Part shown: one piece after another, positions 1 through 51,425 of the stretch
How positions within the stretch are numbered: the first letter of the stretch is position 1
Layout: each line of letters begins with the position of its first letter
Sequence record: MZ234030.1
DNA length: 64,000 bases
Strand: one strand, 5' to 3'
From: Escherichia phage vB_EcoM-CHD16UKE1
Program-made: the position numbers and the translations under genes
Notes under the pieces: generated by a model
Databases searched by the model: none
Seen by the model: the letters and a program-made list of their open reading frames with translations, nothing else
Told to the model about the DNA's origin: nothing

Positions 1-969
1 ATGAAAACTGTAACTATCAATAAGGGTATCTACTTCGGTAAAGAAATCTCTGGAACTTTTGAGCTCTTAGGTGAATGGTTCCCAGATAATGCTCCGGTAG
101 ATGCACAAGGAGATGGTAAAGTTTTTGTTGAAATTGACGGTAAGCGTCGCGGTGTTTGGGTTTACAAATCAGACATTTCATATGATGGTGTAAAAGTTGA
201 AGAAGTTAAAGAATCATATGAAGATATGAAAACCCGCATTAATAAAAGATTTAATGTTATGGGAATGATGACGAATGGTATTATTAACGGAAACATTCGT
301 TCATTAATTATCTCTGGTGCGGCGGGTATTGGTAAAACGTATTCTTTAGATAAAGCTTTGAATAAAGCAAATGATAATGGATACATTGAATATAAAAGCA
401 TTAACGGTAAAATCTCCGGTATCGGTCTTTATGAACAACTTTGGAATAATCGTGAAGAGAATTCTGTCCTTTTGATTGATGATGTGGATGTTTTCTCTGA
501 TATGGACATTCTTAATCTTCTGAAAGCTGCTCTGGACACTGGAGAGACCCGTAAAGTCTGCTGGAGCACTGCATCTTCTTACTTAGAAGAAAAAGGCATT
601 GAGCGTGAGTTTGAATTTAAAGGAACGATTGTTTTTATCACAAACGTTGATATTGACCGCGAATTAGACCGTGGTACTAAACTTGCTCCACATTTACAAG
701 CATTAGTGTCCCGCTCAGTTTATTTAGATTTGGGTGTTCACACTAATGAAGAAATTATGGTCAGGGTTGAAGATGTTATTCTTTCAACCGACATGATGCA
801 AAAGCGCGGTCTTTCTGATGAAGAAACTTATAAAGCATTATCATGGATGAAAGTTAATGTTAATCGTTTACGCAATGTTTCACTGCGTACTGCTCTTTAT
901 CTTGCTGACTTTATTATGACCGACAAAAACGGTTGGGAAGAAATCGCTGAGGTTACTCTTCTGAAATAA
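1..969 (+). CDS. P-loop NTPase of unknown function (322 aa; starts at window edge, may be 5' partial)
   Basis: ORF track; Walker A GAAGIGKT and Walker B-like LLIDDVD in translation. Confidence 0.55.
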   Translation: MKTVTINKGIYFGKEISGTFELLGEWFPDNAPVDAQGDGKVFVEIDGKRRGVWVYKSDISYDGVKVEEVKESYEDMKTRINKRFNVMGMMTNGIINGNIRSLIISGAAGIGKTYSLDKALNKANDNGYIEYKSINGKISGIGLYEQLWNNREENSVLLIDDVDVFSDMDILNLLKAALDTGETRKVCWSTASSYLEEKGIEREFEFKGTIVFITNVDIDRELDRGTKLAPHLQALVSRSVYLDLGVHTNEEIMVRVEDVILSTDMMQKRGLSDEETYKALSWMKVNVNRLRNVSLRTALYLADFIMTDKNGWEEIAEVTLLK

Positions 970-1434: not shown

Positions 1435-1962
1435 ATGAACGCTAAAGATATTTTCAACCTGGTAAATTACAACGATGGTAAATTTAAATCTGAAGCACAA
1501 AGCAAGTTCTTTAATGACATCTCAATCGGAGGTGAAATCACGGTTGACGGAGGACAAATTTACAAATCTCGTTGGAATTGGATCGTTATTATCGATGAGA
1601 TTGGTATTGTAGAAATTTACAAGAATACGAATAAAAATCGTACATTACACTGGTCTCGTGATACTAACGAACAGTACAAAAAGGATAAAGCATCTAAATT
1701 ATCTCGTGTAACTCAAGAAGATATTGAGTTCATCAAGAAAGATATTTTGATGTATGATAACTTAATTGCTGAAGAGCAAGCAGTTATTGATAAATTTGAC
1801 GAGATTAAAGCTTCTCGTGAAATTCCTGATTTTATGAAAGAATCAGTAAATGAACGATACACTCTCATTTCAGAGCGTATTGAAACTTACAAAAAGCAAA
1901 GAGCTGAACGCCAAAATACTCTTCGGAAGTTTGAAGAACGGTTAAAGACGGTACTCGCATAA
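1435..1962 (+). CDS. hypothetical protein with C-terminal coiled coil (175 aa)
   Basis: ORF track; promoter and SD upstream; heptad-like charged C-terminus. Confidence 0.45.
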   Translation: MNAKDIFNLVNYNDGKFKSEAQSKFFNDISIGGEITVDGGQIYKSRWNWIVIIDEIGIVEIYKNTNKNRTLHWSRDTNEQYKKDKASKLSRVTQEDIEFIKKDILMYDNLIAEEQAVIDKFDEIKASREIPDFMKESVNERYTLISERIETYKKQRAERQNTLRKFEERLKTVLA

Positions 1963-2017
1963 CCGCTTTATACCAAGGATGGTATAATGGTTCTAAGCCC
2001 TTTTAATTGAGATTATT

Positions 2018-2432: not shown

Positions 2433-3320
2433 ATGTCAGTAGTAATTAATAATGTCAATGCAGTAATTAAATCTTTAGTTAATAAAAAATTAAATGAATG
2501 GACTGTACTTCGTCGTGGAGAGCCAGATAAATTTTTTCATAGATTTAACCCAACTTTGGATTTGAATGTTATTGACAGAGATGTTCATGCTGAAATTTTA
2601 GATAAATTTAAAGTTGATATTGGGTTTGGGTTAGATAAACATTTGCAACGAACAAACGGATCTGGAATGGGTTTATCTAATCGCATCATGAAAGCCCTTA
2701 ATAAAATTGGAGCGTTGTCTCGTATTAATGCGAGTGAAATCCTTCGCAATTATAATAAAGGATATGACCTTTATGGTCGACTAATGCCGAAATTATCATT
2801 TGACCAAATGATTGCGGATTTGTGGGAAAATCAACGACGATTATTAGCATTAGGCGCTCGATTAGCTAAAGGTCTAGATAAACAAATGATTTTTAAGACC
2901 AATAATACAGAAGACCTTAAATGCTTTAAATTTAGTACTCGTGGAGATGATTATTACATCAGAGCTCGCTCTACAGATTATGTTAATATGGGGCATCATC
3001 TCTGTTTAGCTTTTGAAGTTTTAAAAGAAGCCGGAACATTAGAATATGTGTCTGGTGCTAAATGTCCGATTGGTTCAAATTGCATTTTAATTTATCGCCC
3101 AGATGAATCCAGTTCAACTAAATTACCTACAAAACCTGTACCAGTTCGCAGTAATGAAAAACATTCTGAACAAATTGCTTATTTTAATAAGCAGATTGAA
3201 GAGCTAAATATTTCTATTCAGCAATATGATGATGAAATTTTCAGACTATCTGGATTGAGTAGTAAAGCTAAATCTGAGCGTGAAAAATTAATTAAAATCG
3301 TTGATTTACTTAAATCTTAA
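2433..3320 (+). CDS. coiled-coil paralogue family member 1 (295 aa from ATG 2433)
   Basis: ORF track 2412..3320; ATG at 2433 preceded by GAGG; shared W..F..LF.KQ motif and C-terminal coiled coil with next three ORFs. Confidence 0.5.
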   Translation: MSVVINNVNAVIKSLVNKKLNEWTVLRRGEPDKFFHRFNPTLDLNVIDRDVHAEILDKFKVDIGFGLDKHLQRTNGSGMGLSNRIMKALNKIGALSRINASEILRNYNKGYDLYGRLMPKLSFDQMIADLWENQRRLLALGARLAKGLDKQMIFKTNNTEDLKCFKFSTRGDDYYIRARSTDYVNMGHHLCLAFEVLKEAGTLEYVSGAKCPIGSNCILIYRPDESSSTKLPTKPVPVRSNEKHSEQIAYFNKQIEELNISIQQYDDEIFRLSGLSSKAKSEREKLIKIVDLLKS

Positions 3321-3328
3321 GGAACACC

Positions 3329-4351
3329 ATGAAAACTCGTTCTCAAATTGAAGATATGGTTCGTAATGCCAGCTATACTCGTGATGTTATGACATTTTTG
3401 TGTGAAAATAATTTAGACCCTGATAAAGTTAATCGTGTTATTCATCACTTTAAGTATATGAATAGCAGTGAATGGCTGCGACATTTTGATAAAGCTGGAT
3501 ATATTACGCAAATGACTGCTCGCGAACAGCTCACCGATTTCTGTAAAACTATTGATTATAAAAATCCTCTATTTGTTCAAGGCGTTGGTCAGAGTAAGGT
3601 TGATTTATCAACAGGATTTTTTAATCCAAATCATTACCGTCTTGAATGGAGATTTATTGCTCTATTCCGTAAACAATTAAAGCAAATTTTGTCGACGGCT
3701 AGTCGATTAAAAGGTTCTGACATTAACTTAAAGAACCTGAAATTTGATGGTTATACTCTTCAGATGGAAGTAAGACCATTAAAAGAAAATAATAGAACTG
3801 CACGAATTAGCTTTAAACCTAATACAAAAAATTCTCTTTCAATTTGTGAATGCCTTAAATCACAGTTGACAGAAGCATTTAAGTATATGGATGTTGTTGC
3901 CGCTGTTCAGTCTAAGATTTTACCTCATTTTGAGCGAAATTGGGAACATACAACAACGTATGAACTTGATATGATCGTTTCATTTAAATACGATTTTTTG
4001 AGAAAGGATGAAGTCCCGCAAGAGAAAAAGCAGGAAGTGCAAGATAACTTAAATTTATCTAATTGCTCATCAAACGATCCTAAATTTTGGATGTATAGCT
4101 CAGGTAATAAAGATGCATGGAAATTCAATAAAGTGAATTTTCTTCCTATTGAAAATCCGAGTCTTAAACCTGTTGAAAAATGGCACGCGGATGCGATTGA
4201 GAAGTCTATCAAGGCAGTAGATGATGAACTCGTTAAAGCAACTAATGAAGTGCTAGAAGCTGAAAAGATGCTAGAAAAAGCTCAAGAAAAAGTCAAAAAT
4301 CTTACGAAGCAACGTTCTAAACTGAACAATGCACTAAATGCACTAAACTAG
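3329..4351 (+). CDS. coiled-coil paralogue family member 2 (340 aa)
   Basis: ORF track; motif WRFIALFRKQLKQILSTASRLKG; C-terminal coiled coil. Confidence 0.5.
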   Translation: MKTRSQIEDMVRNASYTRDVMTFLCENNLDPDKVNRVIHHFKYMNSSEWLRHFDKAGYITQMTAREQLTDFCKTIDYKNPLFVQGVGQSKVDLSTGFFNPNHYRLEWRFIALFRKQLKQILSTASRLKGSDINLKNLKFDGYTLQMEVRPLKENNRTARISFKPNTKNSLSICECLKSQLTEAFKYMDVVAAVQSKILPHFERNWEHTTTYELDMIVSFKYDFLRKDEVPQEKKQEVQDNLNLSNCSSNDPKFWMYSSGNKDAWKFNKVNFLPIENPSLKPVEKWHADAIEKSIKAVDDELVKATNEVLEAEKMLEKAQEKVKNLTKQRSKLNNALNALN

Positions 4352-4380
4352 TTTACTTTGCCACAAGGATGTGGTATAAT
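4351..4380 (+). promoter_or_regulatory. T4-type early promoter (GTTTAC / TATAAT)
   Basis: gtttactttgccacaaggatgtggtataat; near-identical copy at 51396. Confidence 0.55.
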
Positions 4381-4408
4381 GTTCTTACTTTCTACTGAGG
4401 AGATTAAT

Positions 4409-5410
4409 ATGACTCGTAACGAATATATCAAATCATTCAATAGCGTTATTGATGATAAAGTTAAACCTGTGTTTAGTCAGAATAGTGTTATTTCCATTAT
4501 CAATCAATGGCTTAATAATATTGATGCAAGTATTGTTTCTTCAAGCAAATTTATTCATGAAGTTCATAAAATTTCTAGTCGCGAATATAAAGATGATATT
4601 AAGGAAACTTTTAAAGGTTCTCGTCTTCTTTCATATTTAGTTAATCAAGATATTCTTGGTAAATTTGGGAAAGAAATTAAACGAACTAAAGATGTAGTAG
4701 GATACAGTTGGTTCGGTGATGTTAATTCTTATCATCTTAATAATAAAGAAGACCCTGAGAATATTTTTACTCGTCGTTGGATTAGTAATTTTAGACTTTT
4801 CAAGAAGCAAATTCTAAAATCAACTTCTAAATTATGCTATGGTGATTATCGTCAAATCCATCCTTGGGCTTCTGATATGATTATCATAAAAGAATATGAG
4901 CTTGATAAAAATAAAGCAGCTATTTTTGTGAATTATGAATTTTTTACACCAGAAGCTAATCAAAAGAACATTAATAAATTTTTCTCAATTGCTAGCGATA
5001 TAACTCGTCAGTTAGAGACCGCATTACTTTGTATGGAAACAGTAGAAAATATTCATACTTATCCTTTTAAGAATATATGCGGTTGGGAAGGATATAAAAT
5101 TGTAGTTAGTCTCCGTGAAGTAAAGTGTGCGTACTCACCGACTGATAAAGAAATTTACCAACAAAAATGTGATGAAATTGTGAATACTCCTAAAGAAGAA
5201 ACTACCCTTGAGGAACTAATGGAATGTCTTGACGATTCGCCTGAACCAGTAGAAATTCGTCCAGAAGTTATTGCACTAGAAAAAGCTTATAAAGAAGTTC
5301 TAGAAATTTCTAATAAAGCGCAGAAAGAATATGAGCAGGCTAAAAAGATTTGGGAAGAATCCGTTAATCGTCTTGATCGTCTTGAACAAGCTTTACAGTT
5401 AATTAAGTAA
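4409..5410 (+). CDS. coiled-coil paralogue family member 3 (333 aa from ATG 4409)
   Basis: ORF track 4358..5410; ATG 4409 with GAGGAG SD; motif RRWISNFRLFKKQILKSTSKLCYG. Confidence 0.5.
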   Translation: MTRNEYIKSFNSVIDDKVKPVFSQNSVISIINQWLNNIDASIVSSSKFIHEVHKISSREYKDDIKETFKGSRLLSYLVNQDILGKFGKEIKRTKDVVGYSWFGDVNSYHLNNKEDPENIFTRRWISNFRLFKKQILKSTSKLCYGDYRQIHPWASDMIIIKEYELDKNKAAIFVNYEFFTPEANQKNINKFFSIASDITRQLETALLCMETVENIHTYPFKNICGWEGYKIVVSLREVKCAYSPTDKEIYQQKCDEIVNTPKEETTLEELMECLDDSPEPVEIRPEVIALEKAYKEVLEISNKAQKEYEQAKKIWEESVNRLDRLEQALQLIK

Positions 5411-5462
5411 TTTAAAGCCAAGGATGGCTCGGAGTATAAACCATTAACCAAGTGAGAAGAAT

Positions 5463-6392
5463 ATGAAAACTCGTAAACATTATATTGATTATTTTGACAG
5501 TCTTATTACTAAACATCGTGATTATCAGATAGGACACAGAGCAGTAATCAATAATATTCTTCGTGATTTCCTTCAGTATGTTGGCCAGGAAAATCATATC
5601 TGTAAAGATACTCAGAACGCTTATTCTCATTCGTTAGGCAATTTACTTGAATGGTTTAAACGTTCTCGTATGTTATCTTCTACTGTAGCTCGCGATAACA
5701 TTAAAAACTTTATGAAGCCGAGATTCATTAAAACTGCGACATCTATAACCGATTTGGTTGAATTTACTATTGTTAACGATGTTAAAAAGACCCATTTGGC
5801 TGATTGGTTATCTACCATTCCCGAAACTAAATTTGCTGATAAATTCGCTTGTCAATTCAATGACCAAGTGAATATGCTTTTTAAGCATGCTCGTAAACTA
5901 TTTACCGCGGGCGATGACCGTACAAATACAGTTCATGTTAAGGATTGGGTTATTGCTGATGAAGTAACACACAAGCCAGGTGGTTCATCAGTATTAATTA
6001 ATATCCAGGTTCCTTATTATTACTCACGTAATCTCGGCACCATGACAGCTAGAGAAATTAATAAGCACAACAAAATTATTCGTTCGTTGTCTTATAAACT
6101 CTGCACGATGGTGGAGATGATGGACGTAGTGGAAATGTATGACGAAACCGAAGATAATGATTCAATGCTGTACAGTTCACGCATTCTAATTAAACTGAAG
6201 AACCCTAATACATATAAGCAAGTTGTAAAAGAACCTAAAGCAGAAAAGGCTGATAATCTGAGTGAAGAACGCGAATATCTCAATGCTCGTTTGATTGAAG
6301 TTGAAGCCCAAATTGCAGAACACACCAAATTGTTAAAAGCTCTTAATGCAAAAGCAAATGGTTTACGTAATGCTATTGAGGTATTGAAATGA
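5463..6392 (+). CDS. coiled-coil paralogue family member 4 (309 aa)
   Basis: ORF track; C-terminal coiled coil; weaker shared motif. Confidence 0.45.
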   Translation: MKTRKHYIDYFDSLITKHRDYQIGHRAVINNILRDFLQYVGQENHICKDTQNAYSHSLGNLLEWFKRSRMLSSTVARDNIKNFMKPRFIKTATSITDLVEFTIVNDVKKTHLADWLSTIPETKFADKFACQFNDQVNMLFKHARKLFTAGDDRTNTVHVKDWVIADEVTHKPGGSSVLINIQVPYYYSRNLGTMTAREINKHNKIIRSLSYKLCTMVEMMDVVEMYDETEDNDSMLYSSRILIKLKNPNTYKQVVKEPKAEKADNLSEEREYLNARLIEVEAQIAEHTKLLKALNAKANGLRNAIEVLK

Positions 6393-7024: not shown

Positions 7025-7288
7025 ATGTTTAAAGTATATGGTTATGATAGCAACATTCATAAATGTGTGTATTGCGATAATGCAAAACGTCTTTTGACCG
7101 TGAAGAAACAGCCGTTTGAATTTATCAACATTATGCCGGAAAAAGGTGTTTTTGATGATGAGAAAATTGCTGAGCTTCTGACTAAACTAGGTCGTGATAC
7201 TCAAATCGGCTTGACAATGCCTCAGGTATTTGCTCCTGATGGAAGTCATATTGGTGGATTTGACCAACTGCGAGAATATTTTAAATGA
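7025..7288 (+). CDS. nrdC: thioredoxin/glutaredoxin NrdC (87 aa)
   Basis: ORF track; CVYC redox motif; length and position as recalled for T4 NrdC. Confidence 0.8.
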   Translation: MFKVYGYDSNIHKCVYCDNAKRLLTVKKQPFEFINIMPEKGVFDDEKIAELLTKLGRDTQIGLTMPQVFAPDGSHIGGFDQLREYFK

Positions 7289-7500
7289 TGCTCGAAGGAA
7301 CTGACTATATTCATGATTACCGCGGAAGCGCGGTATATGTAGGTGATGAAGTTGCAGTTTATTATGGGTATGGAACTTTGATGACAGCCAAGGTTATTCA
7401 AATTAAAAATAATCGTGCTAAACTCGAAGTTTATTATTCTAATGGTGAAAAGTCTATTTCTAAGTGGAAATACGGCGATTGTATGGTTAAATTGGGGTAA
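7285..7500 (+). CDS. hypothetical protein (71 aa)
   Basis: ORF track; overlapping stop/start with nrdC. Confidence 0.4.
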   Translation: MMLEGTDYIHDYRGSAVYVGDEVAVYYGYGTLMTAKVIQIKNNRAKLEVYYSNGEKSISKWKYGDCMVKLG

Positions 7501-7502
7501 AT

Positions 7503-7673
7503 ATGATTTACGATATTAATGTATCACGAGCTCCGTCAATGGTTACTATTCCAGCCGAAGAACTAGATCGTCTTCAGAAAATTGAAGAGCTTCTTTGGGA
7601 AATTGAATCTGATTTGCCATCAGGATTAGAATCCTGGATTGATTATGAAGAACTTAATAAGCTTCGGGGTTAA
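7503..7673 (+). CDS. hypothetical small acidic protein (56 aa)
   Basis: ATG 7503 to TAA 7671-7673, read from sequence. Confidence 0.3.
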   Translation: MIYDINVSRAPSMVTIPAEELDRLQKIEELLWEIESDLPSGLESWIDYEELNKLRG

Positions 7674-7795
7674 ACCTTGGTGGGCGGCTAGATGGGAAAC
7701 TGTAGAGCCAGAGCCGGAAGAACCGGTTTACACTGATGAAGAAACAGTATATAATGAACCAACGATAAATGACTTAATTGATATGGAGATGGGAC

Positions 7796-8281
7796 ATGAT
7801 TACAGTAGATAAGTGGTTTAGAATTAATCGTGTTGATACAGGGCTATGTAATTACTGGCCGGAACTTAGTGCAGGTACTGTCTTTAAAGTTCGTGAACTT
7901 GTAAAAGAATGTGAAGATGATATAGAGCCTGACACTGGAATTATTGAAATTGAACTTTCCGACGGAAAGATTATTAACATCTACGATAAGCCAATTACGT
8001 ATTGGTGCTTGTGGAATACTGAATCAGTCGAAAATGGCGAAATTGAAGAAGTTGTAGAGCGAACTAATCAAGTTGTTCAGAAGCCTAAAGCCGATTTTCA
8101 AGGTGAACGTATTTCATACGCATTAGCTAAATTAGCTGCACAAGAAAATAACGATGGCTATGAAGGTAACCTGATGCAAGCTGCCGCAGAGTACATTGAA
8201 TGGCTTGAAACTCAAATTTCTTTTTCTGACCAAAAGATTCGGCAATATAAGCGATTGCATCAAATGTTTTACAATACTTGA
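7796..8281 (+). CDS. pin: Pin-like protein (161 aa from ATG 7796)
   Basis: ORF track 7778..8281 (TTG); first ATG 7796 gives 161 aa; position between nrdC and 49 as in T4. Confidence 0.5.
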   Translation: MITVDKWFRINRVDTGLCNYWPELSAGTVFKVRELVKECEDDIEPDTGIIEIELSDGKIINIYDKPITYWCLWNTESVENGEIEEVVERTNQVVQKPKADFQGERISYALAKLAAQENNDGYEGNLMQAAAEYIEWLETQISFSDQKIRQYKRLHQMFYNT

Positions 8282-49578: not shown

Positions 49579-51396
49579 ATGATTAAGAATGAAATTAAAA
49601 TTCTGAGCGATATTGAACATATCAAAAAGCGTAGCGGCATGTATATTGGCTCTTCTGCTAATGAAATGCATGAGCGCTTTCTGTTTGGTAAATGGGAAAG
49701 TGTTCAGTATGTACCTGGTCTTGTTAAGCTTATTGATGAAATTATCGATAACTCAGTAGATGAAGGTATTCGTACTAAGTTTAAATTCGCAAATAAAATT
49801 AATGTTACTATTAAAAACAATCAAGTAACAGTTGAAGATAACGGTCGCGGTATTCCACAAGCGATGGTCAAAACACCTACCGGTGAAGAAATTCCTGGTC
49901 CTGTTGCTGCATGGACTATTCCAAAAGCAGGTGGTAACTTCGGTGATGATAAAGAACGCGTCACCGGTGGTATGAATGGTGTTGGTTCTAGTTTGACAAA
50001 CATTTTTTCTGTGATGTTTGTCGGTGAAACTGGTGATGGTCAAAATAATATTGTAGTTCGTTGTTCAAATGGCATGGAAAATAAATCATGGGAAACTATT
50101 CCAGGAAAATGGAAAGGAACTCGCGTTACTTTCATTCCTGATTTTATGTCATTTGAAACTAATGAGCTGTCCCAAGTTTATCTTGACATTACACTAGATC
50201 GTCTCCAGACACTTGCAGTAGTTTATCCTGATATTCAATTTACCTTTAATGGTAAAAAGGTTCAGGGCAATTTTAAGAAATATGCACGCCAATATGATGA
50301 GCATGCTATCGTTCAAGAACAAGAAAATTGCTCTATTGCGGTTGGTCGTTCACCGGATGGTTTTCGTCAATTAACTTATGTGAATAACATTCACACTAAG
50401 AATGGTGGCCATCACATTGACTGTGTTATGGATGATATTTGTGAAGACCTTATTCCACAAATCAAACGTAAGTTCAAAATTGATGTGACTAAAGCACGCG
50501 TTAAAGAATGTTTGACTATCGTTATGTTTGTCCGTGATATGAAAAACATGCGATTTGATTCTCAAACTAAAGAGCGTTTGACTTCTCCATTTGGTGAAAT
50601 CCGTAGTCATATTCAACTTGATGCTAAAAAGATTTCACGTGCTATTCTAAATAATGAAGCAATTCTAATGCCGATTATTGAAGCTGCTTTGGCTCGTAAA
50701 TTAGCGGCAGAAAAAGCAGCAGAAACTAAAGCAGCTAAAAAGGCTTCTAAAGCTAAGGTTCATAAACATATTAAAGCGAATCTTTGTGGTAAAGATGCTG
50801 ATACTACTCTTTTCTTGACTGAGGGTGATTCGGCTATCGGATATCTTATTGATGTTCGTGATAAAGAACTTCACGGTGGTTATCCATTACGTGGTAAAGT
50901 TCTCAACAGTTGGGGTATGTCATATGCTGACATGCTTAAAAACAAAGAACTGTTTGATATTTGCGCAATCACTGGATTAGTTCTTGGTGAAAAAGCTGAA
51001 AACTTGAATTATCATAATATTGCTATTATGACCGATGCTGACCATGATGGTCTAGGAAGCATTTATCCTTCTCTGCTCGGGTTTTTTAGTAATTGGCCAG
51101 AATTGTTTGAGCAAGGACGAATTCGCTTTGTCAAAACTCCTGTAATCATCGCTCAGGTCGGTAAAAAACAAGAATGGTTTTATACAGTCGCTGAATATGA
51201 GAGTGCCAAAGATGCTCTACCTAAACATAGCATCCGTTATATTAAAGGACTTGGCTCTTTGGAAAAATCTGAATATCGTGAGATGATTCAAAACCCAGTA
51301 TATGATGTTGTTAAACTTCCTGAGAACTGGAAAGAGCTTTTTGAAATGCTCATGGGAGATAATGCTGACCTTCGTAAAGAATGGATGAGCCAGTAG
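49579..51396 (+). CDS. 39: DNA topoisomerase II large subunit gp39, single 605-aa ORF (GyrB-like ATPase + Toprim)
   Basis: ORF track 49576..51396; first ATG 49579; continuous ORF with no gene 60 split. Confidence 0.85.
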   Translation: MIKNEIKILSDIEHIKKRSGMYIGSSANEMHERFLFGKWESVQYVPGLVKLIDEIIDNSVDEGIRTKFKFANKINVTIKNNQVTVEDNGRGIPQAMVKTPTGEEIPGPVAAWTIPKAGGNFGDDKERVTGGMNGVGSSLTNIFSVMFVGETGDGQNNIVVRCSNGMENKSWETIPGKWKGTRVTFIPDFMSFETNELSQVYLDITLDRLQTLAVVYPDIQFTFNGKKVQGNFKKYARQYDEHAIVQEQENCSIAVGRSPDGFRQLTYVNNIHTKNGGHHIDCVMDDICEDLIPQIKRKFKIDVTKARVKECLTIVMFVRDMKNMRFDSQTKERLTSPFGEIRSHIQLDAKKISRAILNNEAILMPIIEAALARKLAAEKAAETKAAKKASKAKVHKHIKANLCGKDADTTLFLTEGDSAIGYLIDVRDKELHGGYPLRGKVLNSWGMSYADMLKNKELFDICAITGLVLGEKAENLNYHNIAIMTDADHDGLGSIYPSLLGFFSNWPELFEQGRIRFVKTPVIIAQVGKKQEWFYTVAEYESAKDALPKHSIRYIKGLGSLEKSEYREMIQNPVYDVVKLPENWKELFEMLMGDNADLRKEWMSQ

Positions 51397-51425
51397 TTTA
51401 CTTTACCACAAGGATGTGGTATAAT
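51396..51425 (+). promoter_or_regulatory. T4-type early promoter (GTTTAC / TATAAT), near-identical to 4351..4380
   Basis: gtttactttaccacaaggatgtggtataat. Confidence 0.55.

Follow-up and report, generated by a model that had tools for sequence, protein, structure and literature searches.

Even in T4, the reference phage, the majority of the early "nrdC.x" genes lack an assigned function. T4 nrdC.5 counters Dsr1, a sirtuin that defends the host by depleting NAD. Viable evolved T4 clones that had lost the nrdC.5 region have been described, and a T4 deletion clone plates again on Dsr1-carrying cells when nrdC.5 is supplied from a plasmid (Srikant, Guegler and Laub 2022, eLife, PMC9391042). The nearby segment encodes other anti-defense factors, Pin and the T6 protein Gp49.2, an inhibitor of OLD (PMC13096335). 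DSAD1, a phage inhibitor of the DSR2 sirtuin defense, disables a SIR2-type sensor-effector that depletes NAD and is reported to do so by binding it (PMC10973363, PMC11087589); it may offer a functional analogy for a possible action of NrdC.5 on Dsr1.

The DNA analyzed here (the window) comprises 64,000 nucleotides of Escherichia phage vB_EcoM-CHD16UKE1 (MZ234030.1), a Tequatrovirus (T4-like phage). Four neighboring early genes in it are T4 nrdC.6, nrdC.5, nrdC.4, and nrdC.3, abbreviated below as C6, C5, C4, and C3; the ORF list confirmed the lengths and common orientation given for them in an earlier sequence-only reading (Table 1). The window C5 is the ortholog of T4 NrdC.5 (DUF7235, PF23882), with 92-93% identity. 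C4, C3, and C6 have a conserved helical core and probably also domain order in common with T4 NrdC.5 but did not match the PF23882 profile at E <= 1, and by that criterion they lie outside the NrdC.5 family. Databases already unite nrdC.3 and nrdC.4 in one family (Pfam PF26897/PHROG 1435) and place nrdC.6, whose homologs carry precomputed Pfam family PF26899, and nrdC.5 in separate ones, giving three unlinked families of unknown function. On the basis of profile comparisons, we propose that PF26897, PF23882, and PF26899 be joined as one superfamily. Its distant putative members occur in Tegunavirus, Jiaodavirus, and T4-like phages of Acinetobacter, Erwinia, and Serratia.

Table 1. Positions of features in and around the nrdC.6-nrdC.3 array (window coordinates)
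Feature	Position	Strand	Basis or remark
PmSL-like middle-promoter cassette upstream of nrdC.7-nrdC.6-nrdC.5	1965..1988	+	Sequence
nrdC.6-type paralog, 295 aa	2433..3320	+	T4 nrdC.6 ortholog; phrog_2257 match
C6 helical core LSRINASEILRNYNKG ... LWENQRRLLALGARLAKG	2715..2873	+	In register with C4 and C5 cores
C6 C-terminal helix, aa 242-294	3156..3314	+	AlphaFold2 helices 242-271, 277-294
nrdC.5, 340 aa	3329..4351	+	Pfam DUF7235 (PF23882), E 1.1e-128, full length
C5 helical core GYITQMTAREQLTDFCK ... WRFIALFRKQLKQILSTASRLKG	3497..3715	+	hhalign register vs C4
C5 C-terminal heptad helix, aa 285-340	4181..4348	+	Heptad p<0.003
PeSL upstream of nrdC.4	4352..4380	+	TTTACT-N17-TATAAT; promoter scan 10/12 matches with TG
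nrdC.4, 333 aa	4409..5410	+	phrog_1435; homologs carry precomputed Pfam PF26897 "Phage_T4_Y04OP"
C4 helical core SRLLSYLVNQDILGKFGK ... RRWISNFRLFKKQILKSTSKLCYG	4619..4843	+	hhalign registers
C4 C-terminal helix, aa 285-332	5261..5404	+	One 48-residue AlphaFold2 helix
PeSL-like cassette upstream of nrdC.3	5411..5440	+	TTTAAA-N18-TATAAA; conserved in T4
nrdC.3, 309 aa	5463..6392	+	phrog_1435; nearest paralog is nrdC.4
C3 helical core SRMLSSTVARDNIKNFMK ... KFACQFNDQVNMLFKHARKLFTAG	5664..5912	+	hhalign vs C4
C3 C-terminal heptad helix, aa 262-309	6246..6389	+	Heptad p=0.003

The four genes go back to a single gene; the copies are very old and have diverged strongly. By pairwise BLASTP, only C3 and C4 were significantly similar (24% over 226 aa, E 1e-5), and the other five of the six pairs were not. 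Profile-profile comparison with hhalign bore out the description of the four as true but very diverged paralogs in an early, plastic region: C3 matched C4 (98%, E 8.6e-14), C5 matched the C4/C3 profile (96.2%, E 2.6e-9, over 146 columns outside the coiled coil), and C6 matched the merged C4/C3/C5 profile (93.2%, E 3.1e-7). The sequence-only reading had set its own refutation test, a search for similarity beyond the coiled coil; when this test was run, significant similarity was found, with the matches falling outside the C-terminal helix. The metagenomic protein P0233 is an intermediate: almost all of it can be matched to the C5 profile (95%) and likewise to the C4/C3 profile (98%). Reversed-profile controls gave E values of 0.1-0.47, and a comparison of the 36 window ORFs with 180 aa or more yielded matches for these four only. 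C6 is the most divergent of the four. A direct C6-C5 profile comparison was not significant, and C6 is tied to the family through the merged profile and the similarity of predicted folds, not through direct similarity to C5. A HMMER profile of C4 and C3 retrieved neither C5 nor C6 from 1.84 billion representative proteins. That coiled-coil or low-complexity bias plus a chance motif explains the resemblance is very improbable: the BLASTP, direct C6-C5, and HMMER results would fit such an explanation, but the position of the profile matches outside the C-terminal helix, the controls (reversed profiles at E of at least 0.1, other window ORFs without a match), the bridging of C5 and C4/C3 by P0233, and the agreement of the predicted C4 and C6 topologies and their shared structural matches (below) all speak against it.

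The internal motif noted earlier in these proteins is genuine and stands in the same register in every hhalign profile alignment. WRFIALFRKQLKQILSTASRLKG of C5 lies opposite RRWISNFRLFKKQILKSTSKLCYG of C4, and LWENQRRLLALGARLAKG of C6 lies opposite the same C4 segment. The core helices, placed in the N-terminal helical domain, carry "SR-L-S...L..F-G" and "F....IL..A.[KR]L..G". AlphaFold2 predicts the core helices at residues 94-106, 123-132, and 134-144 of C6 and at residues 72-84, 119-130, and 132-142 of C4.

AlphaFold2 models of C4 (mean pLDDT 81.5) and C6 (mean pLDDT 76.5) have the same order of elements, in which a helical N-domain is followed by an alpha/beta sandwich, then by a disordered linker, and finally by a long C-terminal helix; this order coincides with the sequence register. 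Both models matched A0A345AUV5, E5E4A2, A0A1V0DXL6, and A0A1Z1LY96, uncharacterized Straboviridae proteins, in BFVD. The models of these two members, compared by element order rather than by superposition, suggest an architecture common to the family. The C-termini had been described as strongly heptad-like. With a crude heptad score compared with 300 shuffles, the best window lay within the last ~55 residues of each protein; the description held for C5 (p<0.003) and C3 (p=0.003), while the signal was weaker for C4 (p=0.07, borderline) and C6 (p=0.26, weak). In every lineage, conservation is highest in the C-terminal helix and lowest in the alpha/beta domain. The helix is the best-conserved segment of C6 (55-69% identity across genera) and of the C5 lineage, and in C4 it is 55-75% identical across genera, compared with 22-52% for the remainder of the protein. 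The variable alpha/beta domain resembles tail terminator and tail completion proteins (lambda gpU, SPP1 gp17-like, T5 p142, GTA, DUF3168).

The sequence-only reading had spoken of an expansion under diversifying selection. "Expansion" is misleading, as the C6, C5, and C4/C3 lineages are ancient rather than recent. Four genera, Tequatro-, Mosig-, Dhaka-, and Gaprivervirus, carry a trio of C6-type, C5-type, and C4/C3-type genes in an unchanged order; the presence of C3 and C4 together is specific to Tequatrovirus, where all four genes are retained in nearly all records. Diversifying selection was not borne out either. Pairwise dN/dS values against T4 were 0.17 for C6, 0.19 for C5, 0.18 for C4, and 0.31 for C3, well below 1, and the four paralogs evolve under purifying selection. 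Neighboring genes had lower values (about 0-0.10), except nrdC.7 at 0.33. No 40-codon window had dN above dS in the single genome pair compared (the window and T4). The window and T4 versions of nrdC.3 share just 61% identity, at a dS of about 1, and the gene is highly polymorphic among T-even phages, with allele classes at ~60%, ~75%, and >90% identity. Since a dS of about 1 accompanies it, the divergence of nrdC.3 speaks for replacement of the allele and not for positive selection. In the T4 reference genome, a 1-nt deletion (frameshift) has removed the C-terminal helix of nrdC.6, and one natural phage contig has C5 fused to C3 (C5::C3) and no C4.

The four genes are bounded by known promoter-stem-loop (PeSL/PmSL) cassettes of T4-type phages (Arbiol et al. 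2010, PMC2839356; Comeau et al. 2014, PMC4122927), located before nrdC.4, before nrdC.3, and before nrdC.7-nrdC.6-nrdC.5. They are ordinary members of this class, being intergenic, with a hairpin in the spacer, and lying in a hyperplastic region. The cassette before nrdC.7 contains a Mot-box-like GCTTTA, the hairpin ACCA-AGGA-TGGT (1972-1983), and TATAAT; P479, QL01, and PhAPEC2 have the same module ahead of their C6-type gene. The nrdC.4 cassette fits the published PST/T4 consensus TTTACW-N17-TAYWAT exactly and holds the hairpin CCACA-AGGA-TGTGG (4361-4374) within its spacer, with compensatory stems in other genera. The nrdC.3 cassette (hairpin GCCA-AGGA-TGGC, 5417-5428) also fits, though with an 18-nt spacer and TATAAA. 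CAAGGATG occurs in the window more often than expected (6 observed, 1.46 expected). Judging from their sequence context, the four genes are probably expressed early, from the PeSL-type promoters ahead of them. By eye, the AGGA loop looks constant, with compensatory stems, in four genera.

Overall, C6, C4, and C3 are uncharacterized paralogs of a known anti-defense gene. An anti-defense role had been guessed for the whole array; it holds for nrdC.5 through its T4 ortholog (PMC9391042), and for the other three it is extrapolated. We infer that C6, C4, and C3 are good candidates for counter-defense factors with the same kind of job, because their paralog nrdC.5 counters Dsr1. Comparison with Pfam, NCBIfam, and PDB sequences linked the four proteins to no catalytic family, and inspection of the hhalign alignments revealed no polar constellation conserved superfamily-wide. 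The family probably consists of binders rather than enzymes.

The reading we favor, at a probability of roughly 55%, is that these genes encode an ancient family of non-essential, soluble, early T-even proteins that act as stoichiometric inhibitors of host immune proteins. The lineage-specific, amphipathic C-terminal helix would serve oligomerization or docking, and the fast-evolving alpha/beta domain would set target specificity. Each lineage (C6, C5, and C4/C3) would be specialized for a different host defense or for a variant of one, and PeSL-mediated cassette exchange would explain how the array gains, loses, and fuses genes and replaces alleles. Three observations were counted against this reading: an experimental phenotype exists for only one of the four genes, and the effect of NrdC.5 on Dsr1 could be indirect; the dN/dS values carry no arms-race positive-selection signal; and the fixed order of the trio in four genera also fits a three-subunit complex.

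A less probable alternative, though one to be taken seriously, is common ancestry with unrelated jobs. NrdC.5 would then be the sole immune antagonist, the others would be accessory, host-takeover, or decaying genes, and family resemblance would say nothing about the function of C6, C4, and C3. Identity between lineages below 25%, the frameshift in T4 nrdC.6, and a searchable literature that records no phenotype for C6, C4, or C3 agree with this. Retention of all four genes in nearly all Tequatrovirus records at dN/dS of 0.17-0.31, the conserved architecture of the C4 and C6 models, and the richness of the region in anti-defense genes argue against it.

It is rather unlikely that proteins of the C6, C5, and C4/C3 types assemble into one hetero-oligomer, as subunits joined by their C-terminal helices, with the anti-Dsr1 activity or another host-takeover function belonging to the complex. 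Co-occurrence of the three lineages in one order across four genera would be expected of such a machine, as would a highly conserved helix peculiar to each lineage, suited to specific pairing. Plasmid-borne nrdC.5 alone, however, rescued the deletion clone, whose remaining paralogs are unspecified (PMC9391042); T4 nrdC.6 lacks the C-terminal helix, yet T4 overcomes Dsr1; and the natural C5::C3 fusion occurs without C4.

An improbable variant makes the early proteins structural-protein decoys. The tail-terminator-like alpha/beta domain would render them non-activating mimics of virion parts, which would fill the sensor domains of shape-recognizing defenses before the late structural proteins appear. 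Candidate targets would be sensors of the Dsr1/Avs7 type and those Avs families that respond to tail terminator, tail tube, or connector proteins, with one sensor class per paralog and the C-terminal coiled coil giving avidity.

By way of the anti-Dsr1 gene nrdC.5, three orphan genes (nrdC.6, nrdC.4, and nrdC.3) become concrete counter-defense candidates, as do the related genes of Mosig-, Dhaka-, Gapriver-, Teguna-, and Jiaodaviruses. The conserved helical core, variable alpha/beta domain, and lineage-specific C-terminal helix provide a domain map for truncations and chimeras, and the PeSL cassettes offer a proposed account of how the array is remodeled. The existence of nrdC.3 in several deeply diverged alleles is relevant to host-range prediction for therapeutic T4-like phages.

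Two upstream neighbors had also been singled out. A coiled-coil end had been ascribed to nrdC.8 (1435-1962); the protein does have a charged C-terminal tail, without a significant heptad signal in the shuffle score. It was rejected as a family member, its near-identical Mosigvirus ortholog being without homology to the four families. The P-loop protein seen at 1-969 is nrdC.10, in which a Walker A motif is present alongside weak AAA/STAND matches.

Over its first 9.1 kb, the window shares 100% identity with Escherichia phage vB_EcoM-CHD2BS1 and 98 to 99% with many other Tequatroviruses. ORFs were identified by comparison with the RefSeq annotations of fFiEco06 and T4. The four consecutive genes that a sequence-only reading had taken for diverged paralogues match T4 nrdC.6, nrdC.5, nrdC.4, and nrdC.3 (products C6, C5, C4, and C3). 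None of the four products matched a thioredoxin family; where GenBank records call these genes "thioredoxin", as many do, the name has been carried over from nrdC. The upstream P-loop NTPase is real: NrdC.10 has a Walker A motif, with weak AAA/STAND matches. NrdC.10 is conserved far beyond the array: tblastn matched it at 30 to 100% identity in 1311 phage records. T4-like phages of Vibrio, Aeromonas, and Acinetobacter are among them, as are several jumbo phages, and some of the records label it clamp-loader-like. NrdC.8 was rejected as a fifth family member on two grounds, no family homology (Mosigvirus orthologue) and no significant heptad signal.

Features of the array region, in window coordinates
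Feature	Position	Product or hairpin	Remark
nrdC.10	1-969		upstream neighbour
nrdC.9			upstream neighbour
nrdC.8	1435-1962		upstream neighbour
Cassette before nrdC.7-C.6-C.5	1965-1988	ACCA-AGGA-TGGT	
nrdC.7		membrane protein	upstream neighbour
nrdC.6	2433-3320	295 aa	T4 gene match
nrdC.5	3329-4351	340 aa	T4 gene match
Cassette before nrdC.4	4352-4380	CCACA-AGGA-TGTGG	
nrdC.4	4409-5410	333 aa	T4 gene match
Cassette before nrdC.3	5411-5440	GCCA-AGGA-TGGC	
nrdC.3	5463-6392	309 aa	T4 gene match
nrdC.2, nrdC.1, nrdC, pin, gene 49			downstream neighbours
Copy of nrdC.4 cassette	51395-51425		near-identical

Pairwise BLASTP of the four proteins and their neighbours was significant for C3 and C4 alone (24% identity over 226 residues; E = 1e-5), and the remaining five of six pairs were within noise. 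Databases place C3 and C4 in one family (PHROG 1435/Pfam PF26897, "Phage_T4_Y04OP"), C5 in DUF7235 (PF23882), and C6 in PF26899, with no links between the three. Comparison of profiles with hhalign matched C3 to the C4 family with 98% probability (E = 9e-14). C5 matched C4 at 84% (E = 7e-6) in the first alignments; when these were enlarged with Mosig-, Dhaka-, and Gaprivervirus orthologues, C5 matched the C4/C3 profile at 96.2% (E = 2.6e-9) over 146 columns (C5 51-201/C4 66-223), a region far from the coiled coil. C6 is the outlier of the four. Set directly against C5 and C4 with the shallow initial alignments, it scored weakly (0.1% and 10%, respectively), and a signal was seen only once orthologues of three genera were added and C4, C3, and C5 were merged: the non-redundant C6 profile then matched the merged profile at 93% (E = 3.1e-7; C6 67-168/C4 48-166). 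The claim of four diverged paralogues, with similarity reaching beyond the coiled coil, is thus upheld by profiles, BLASTP detecting C3-C4 only.

A HMMER search of 1.84 billion representative proteins with a C4+C3 profile returned 10 matches, none of them a C5- or C6-family protein. One, a 315-aa metagenomic protein (P0233), matched the C5 profile at 95% (E = 2e-8; residues 44-315) and the C4/C3 profile at 98% (E = 2e-12), and is an intermediate sequence between C5 and C4/C3. The internal motif, which the sequence-only reading had noted, fell in the identical register in all alignments (WRFIALFRKQLKQILSTASRLKG in C5, RRWISNFRLFKKQILKSTSKLCYG in C4, and LWENQRRLLALGARLAKG in C6). A second common helix lay upstream of it (SRLLSYLVNQDILGKFG in C4, LSRINASEILRNYNKG in C6, and GYITQMTAREQLTDFCK in C5). 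Reversed profiles scored E = 0.1 to 0.47, and when the 36 ORFs in the window that reach 180 aa were compared, matches were confined to the four array members; both controls support the specificity of the paralogy signal. These profile data suggest that the four genes join into one superfamily that merges the three database families.

AlphaFold2 models of C4 (mean pLDDT, 81.5) and C6 (76.5) had the same order of elements: N-terminal helices, a helix pair, a short beta element, the motif-bearing helix pair, a beta hairpin, a long helix, a second hairpin, a low-confidence linker, and a long C-terminal helix. Element boundaries coincided with the hhalign register. Both models retrieved from BFVD the same uncharacterised Straboviridae proteins of 300 to 350 aa (A0A345AUV5 of Acinetobacter fHyAci03, E5E4A2 of Acj61, A0A1V0DXL6 of Yersinia fHe-Yen9-01, and A0A1Z1LY96 of Serratia CBH8). 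The array proteins had no meaningful PDB or NCBIfam sequence matches, and a PDB sequence search indicated that no solved structure of NrdC.5 exists. The genes, their three separate families, the promoter-stem-loop cassettes, and the link between nrdC.5 and the sirtuin defence Dsr1 were already known; the unification of four genes into a superfamily, the predicted common architecture, and the taxonomic spread are added here.

All four proteins had been said to end in coiled coils. By a simple heptad score, the best window was the C-terminal tail in each, and C5 and C3 reached significance, C4 was borderline, and C6 gave a weak score, so the claim stands in part. Within each lineage, the last ~50 residues were best conserved and the alpha/beta domain was fastest to evolve. 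Identities across genera for the C-terminal helix and the central alpha/beta domain, respectively, were 55 to 75% and 22 to 45% for C4, 55 to 69% and 22 to 33% for C6, and 32 to 43% and 17 to 24% for C5. Since the C-terminal helices are conserved within lineages and unlike one another between them, they are probably lineage-specific functional modules and not generic coiled coils. T4 NrdC.6 is annotated as 275 aa without this helix, which is still encoded downstream in the old frame; the T4 reference sequence (NC_000866 10067-10150, minus strand) has a 1-nt deletion (GAGCT-GATATT) relative to GAGCTAAATATT in the window (3205-3215) and fFiEco06, which reflects a mutation of the lab strain or else an error in sequencing. 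In Salmonella phage Manna (PP987310 50891-51139), nrdC.4 is represented by its last 83 residues alone (linker and C-terminal helix; 95% identity), which suggests a chimeric or truncated gene keeping the helix module.

By tblastn, C5 and C4 were present in Tequatro-, Gapriver-, and Dhakaviruses. In Gapriver- and Dhakaviruses, three genes stand in the array order (C6-type, C5-type, C4-type), and Mosigvirus PhAPEC2 carries C6-type, RB69p097-type (C5-type, 98%), and C3-type genes. C4 and C3 occurred together in Tequatroviruses only. Because the order of the trio is kept in other genera and the C4-C3 pair is limited to one, the array is an ancient trio with one later addition and did not arise in a recent burst; the expansion first proposed does not fit lineages this old. 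Tegunavirus gp94 matched the C6 and C4/C3 profiles, and Tegunavirus gp111 matched C5 weakly. A 324-aa ORF of Klebsiella phage PKO111 (KR269720 13145-14119) matched the nrdC.4/nrdC.3 profile (94%; E = 2e-7); the 1-kb stretch around it carries no GenBank annotation, and the ORF is a missed family member. Acinetobacter phage Apostate possibly has one distant member. The small yield of the exhaustive HMMER search indicates that the family does not extend beyond T4-like phages.

Diversifying selection, also proposed for the array, was not borne out: dN/dS relative to T4 was 0.17 to 0.31 across the four genes (~0 to 0.10 for flanking genes and 0.33 for nrdC.7), and no 40-codon window had dN>dS. nrdC.3 was 61% identical to its T4 counterpart with a dS of ~1, which points to allele replacement and not to demonstrated positive selection. 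Its alleles have conserved N and C termini and a replaced middle. Database alleles fell into classes of >90% (this phage), ~75% (Mosigvirus-like), and ~60% (T4 and T2), deeply diverged in T-even genomes that are otherwise near-identical.

Three intergenic spacers contain a T4-type promoter whose own spacer holds a small hairpin with a constant AGGA loop. These are the published early and middle promoter-stem-loop elements (PeSL/PmSL), for which the PeSL consensus of the PST/T4 pair is TTTACW-N17-TAYWAT and which have been proposed to mediate the shuffling of modules within hyperplastic regions (PMC2839356, PMC4122927). The same module precedes orthologues in T4, P479, QL01, and PhAPEC2, with compensatory stem changes across four genera. 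CAAGGATG occurred 6 times in the window (1.46 expected), and the second copy of the nrdC.4 cassette lies ~47 kb away. Two rearranged products were found: a protein from a 167-kb metagenomic contig (P0056) fuses nrdC.5 146-272 to nrdC.3 129-309, with nrdC.4 deleted, and residues 176-258 are duplicated in tandem within the 378-aa nrdC.6 of Shigella phage Sf25 (P0121). PeSL cassettes would readily account for the way the C3/C4 cassette differs from genus to genus, and we assume that PeSL exchange may also lie behind the fusion and the duplication.

One evolved clone of T4, which carries compensatory deletions, no longer plates on ECOR17 (Srikant, Guegler and Laub 2022, PMC9391042). Deletion of dsr1 from ECOR17 gives plating back, cloned Dsr1 protects MG1655 against the clone, and expression of T4 nrdC.5 alone restored its infectivity (PMC9391042). 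Dsr1 is a SIR2 effector; it has its sensor in common with Avs7, and phage major capsid proteins activate that sensor (PMC13581612). Literature searches on a renamed nrdC.5, on DUF7235, and on a mechanism against Dsr1 yielded the 2022 paper and nothing more. The proposed anti-defence role therefore holds for nrdC.5 (PMC9391042), and we infer it for C6, C4, and C3, which are uncharacterised paralogues of this known kind. That these three have unrelated functions is unlikely. The best-supported reading is that the family acts early, by stoichiometric inhibition of host immune proteins: the C-terminal helix would serve for oligomerisation or docking, target specificity would lie in the variable alpha/beta domain, and no two lineages would share a target. 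Assembly of the array products into a single heteromeric complex is quite improbable. A decoy action, in which a tail-terminator-like domain might block shape-recognising sensors early, is an extension of low probability: Avs families sensing tail terminators exist, and DSAD1, which blocks DSR2, is a precedent.

The array neighbourhood also encodes Pin, and the counterpart segment of T6 encodes Gp49.2, an inhibitor of OLD defence (PMC13096335). Because of nrdC.5, Pin, and T6 Gp49.2, the segment behaves as an anti-defence island. Between nrdC and pin (7285-7812), in the stretch whose T6 equivalent holds Gp49.2, the window has three small ORFs, unlike T4 (genes 49.1-49.3), and one of them is labelled "antitoxin" in the near-identical fFiEco06 RefSeq record.
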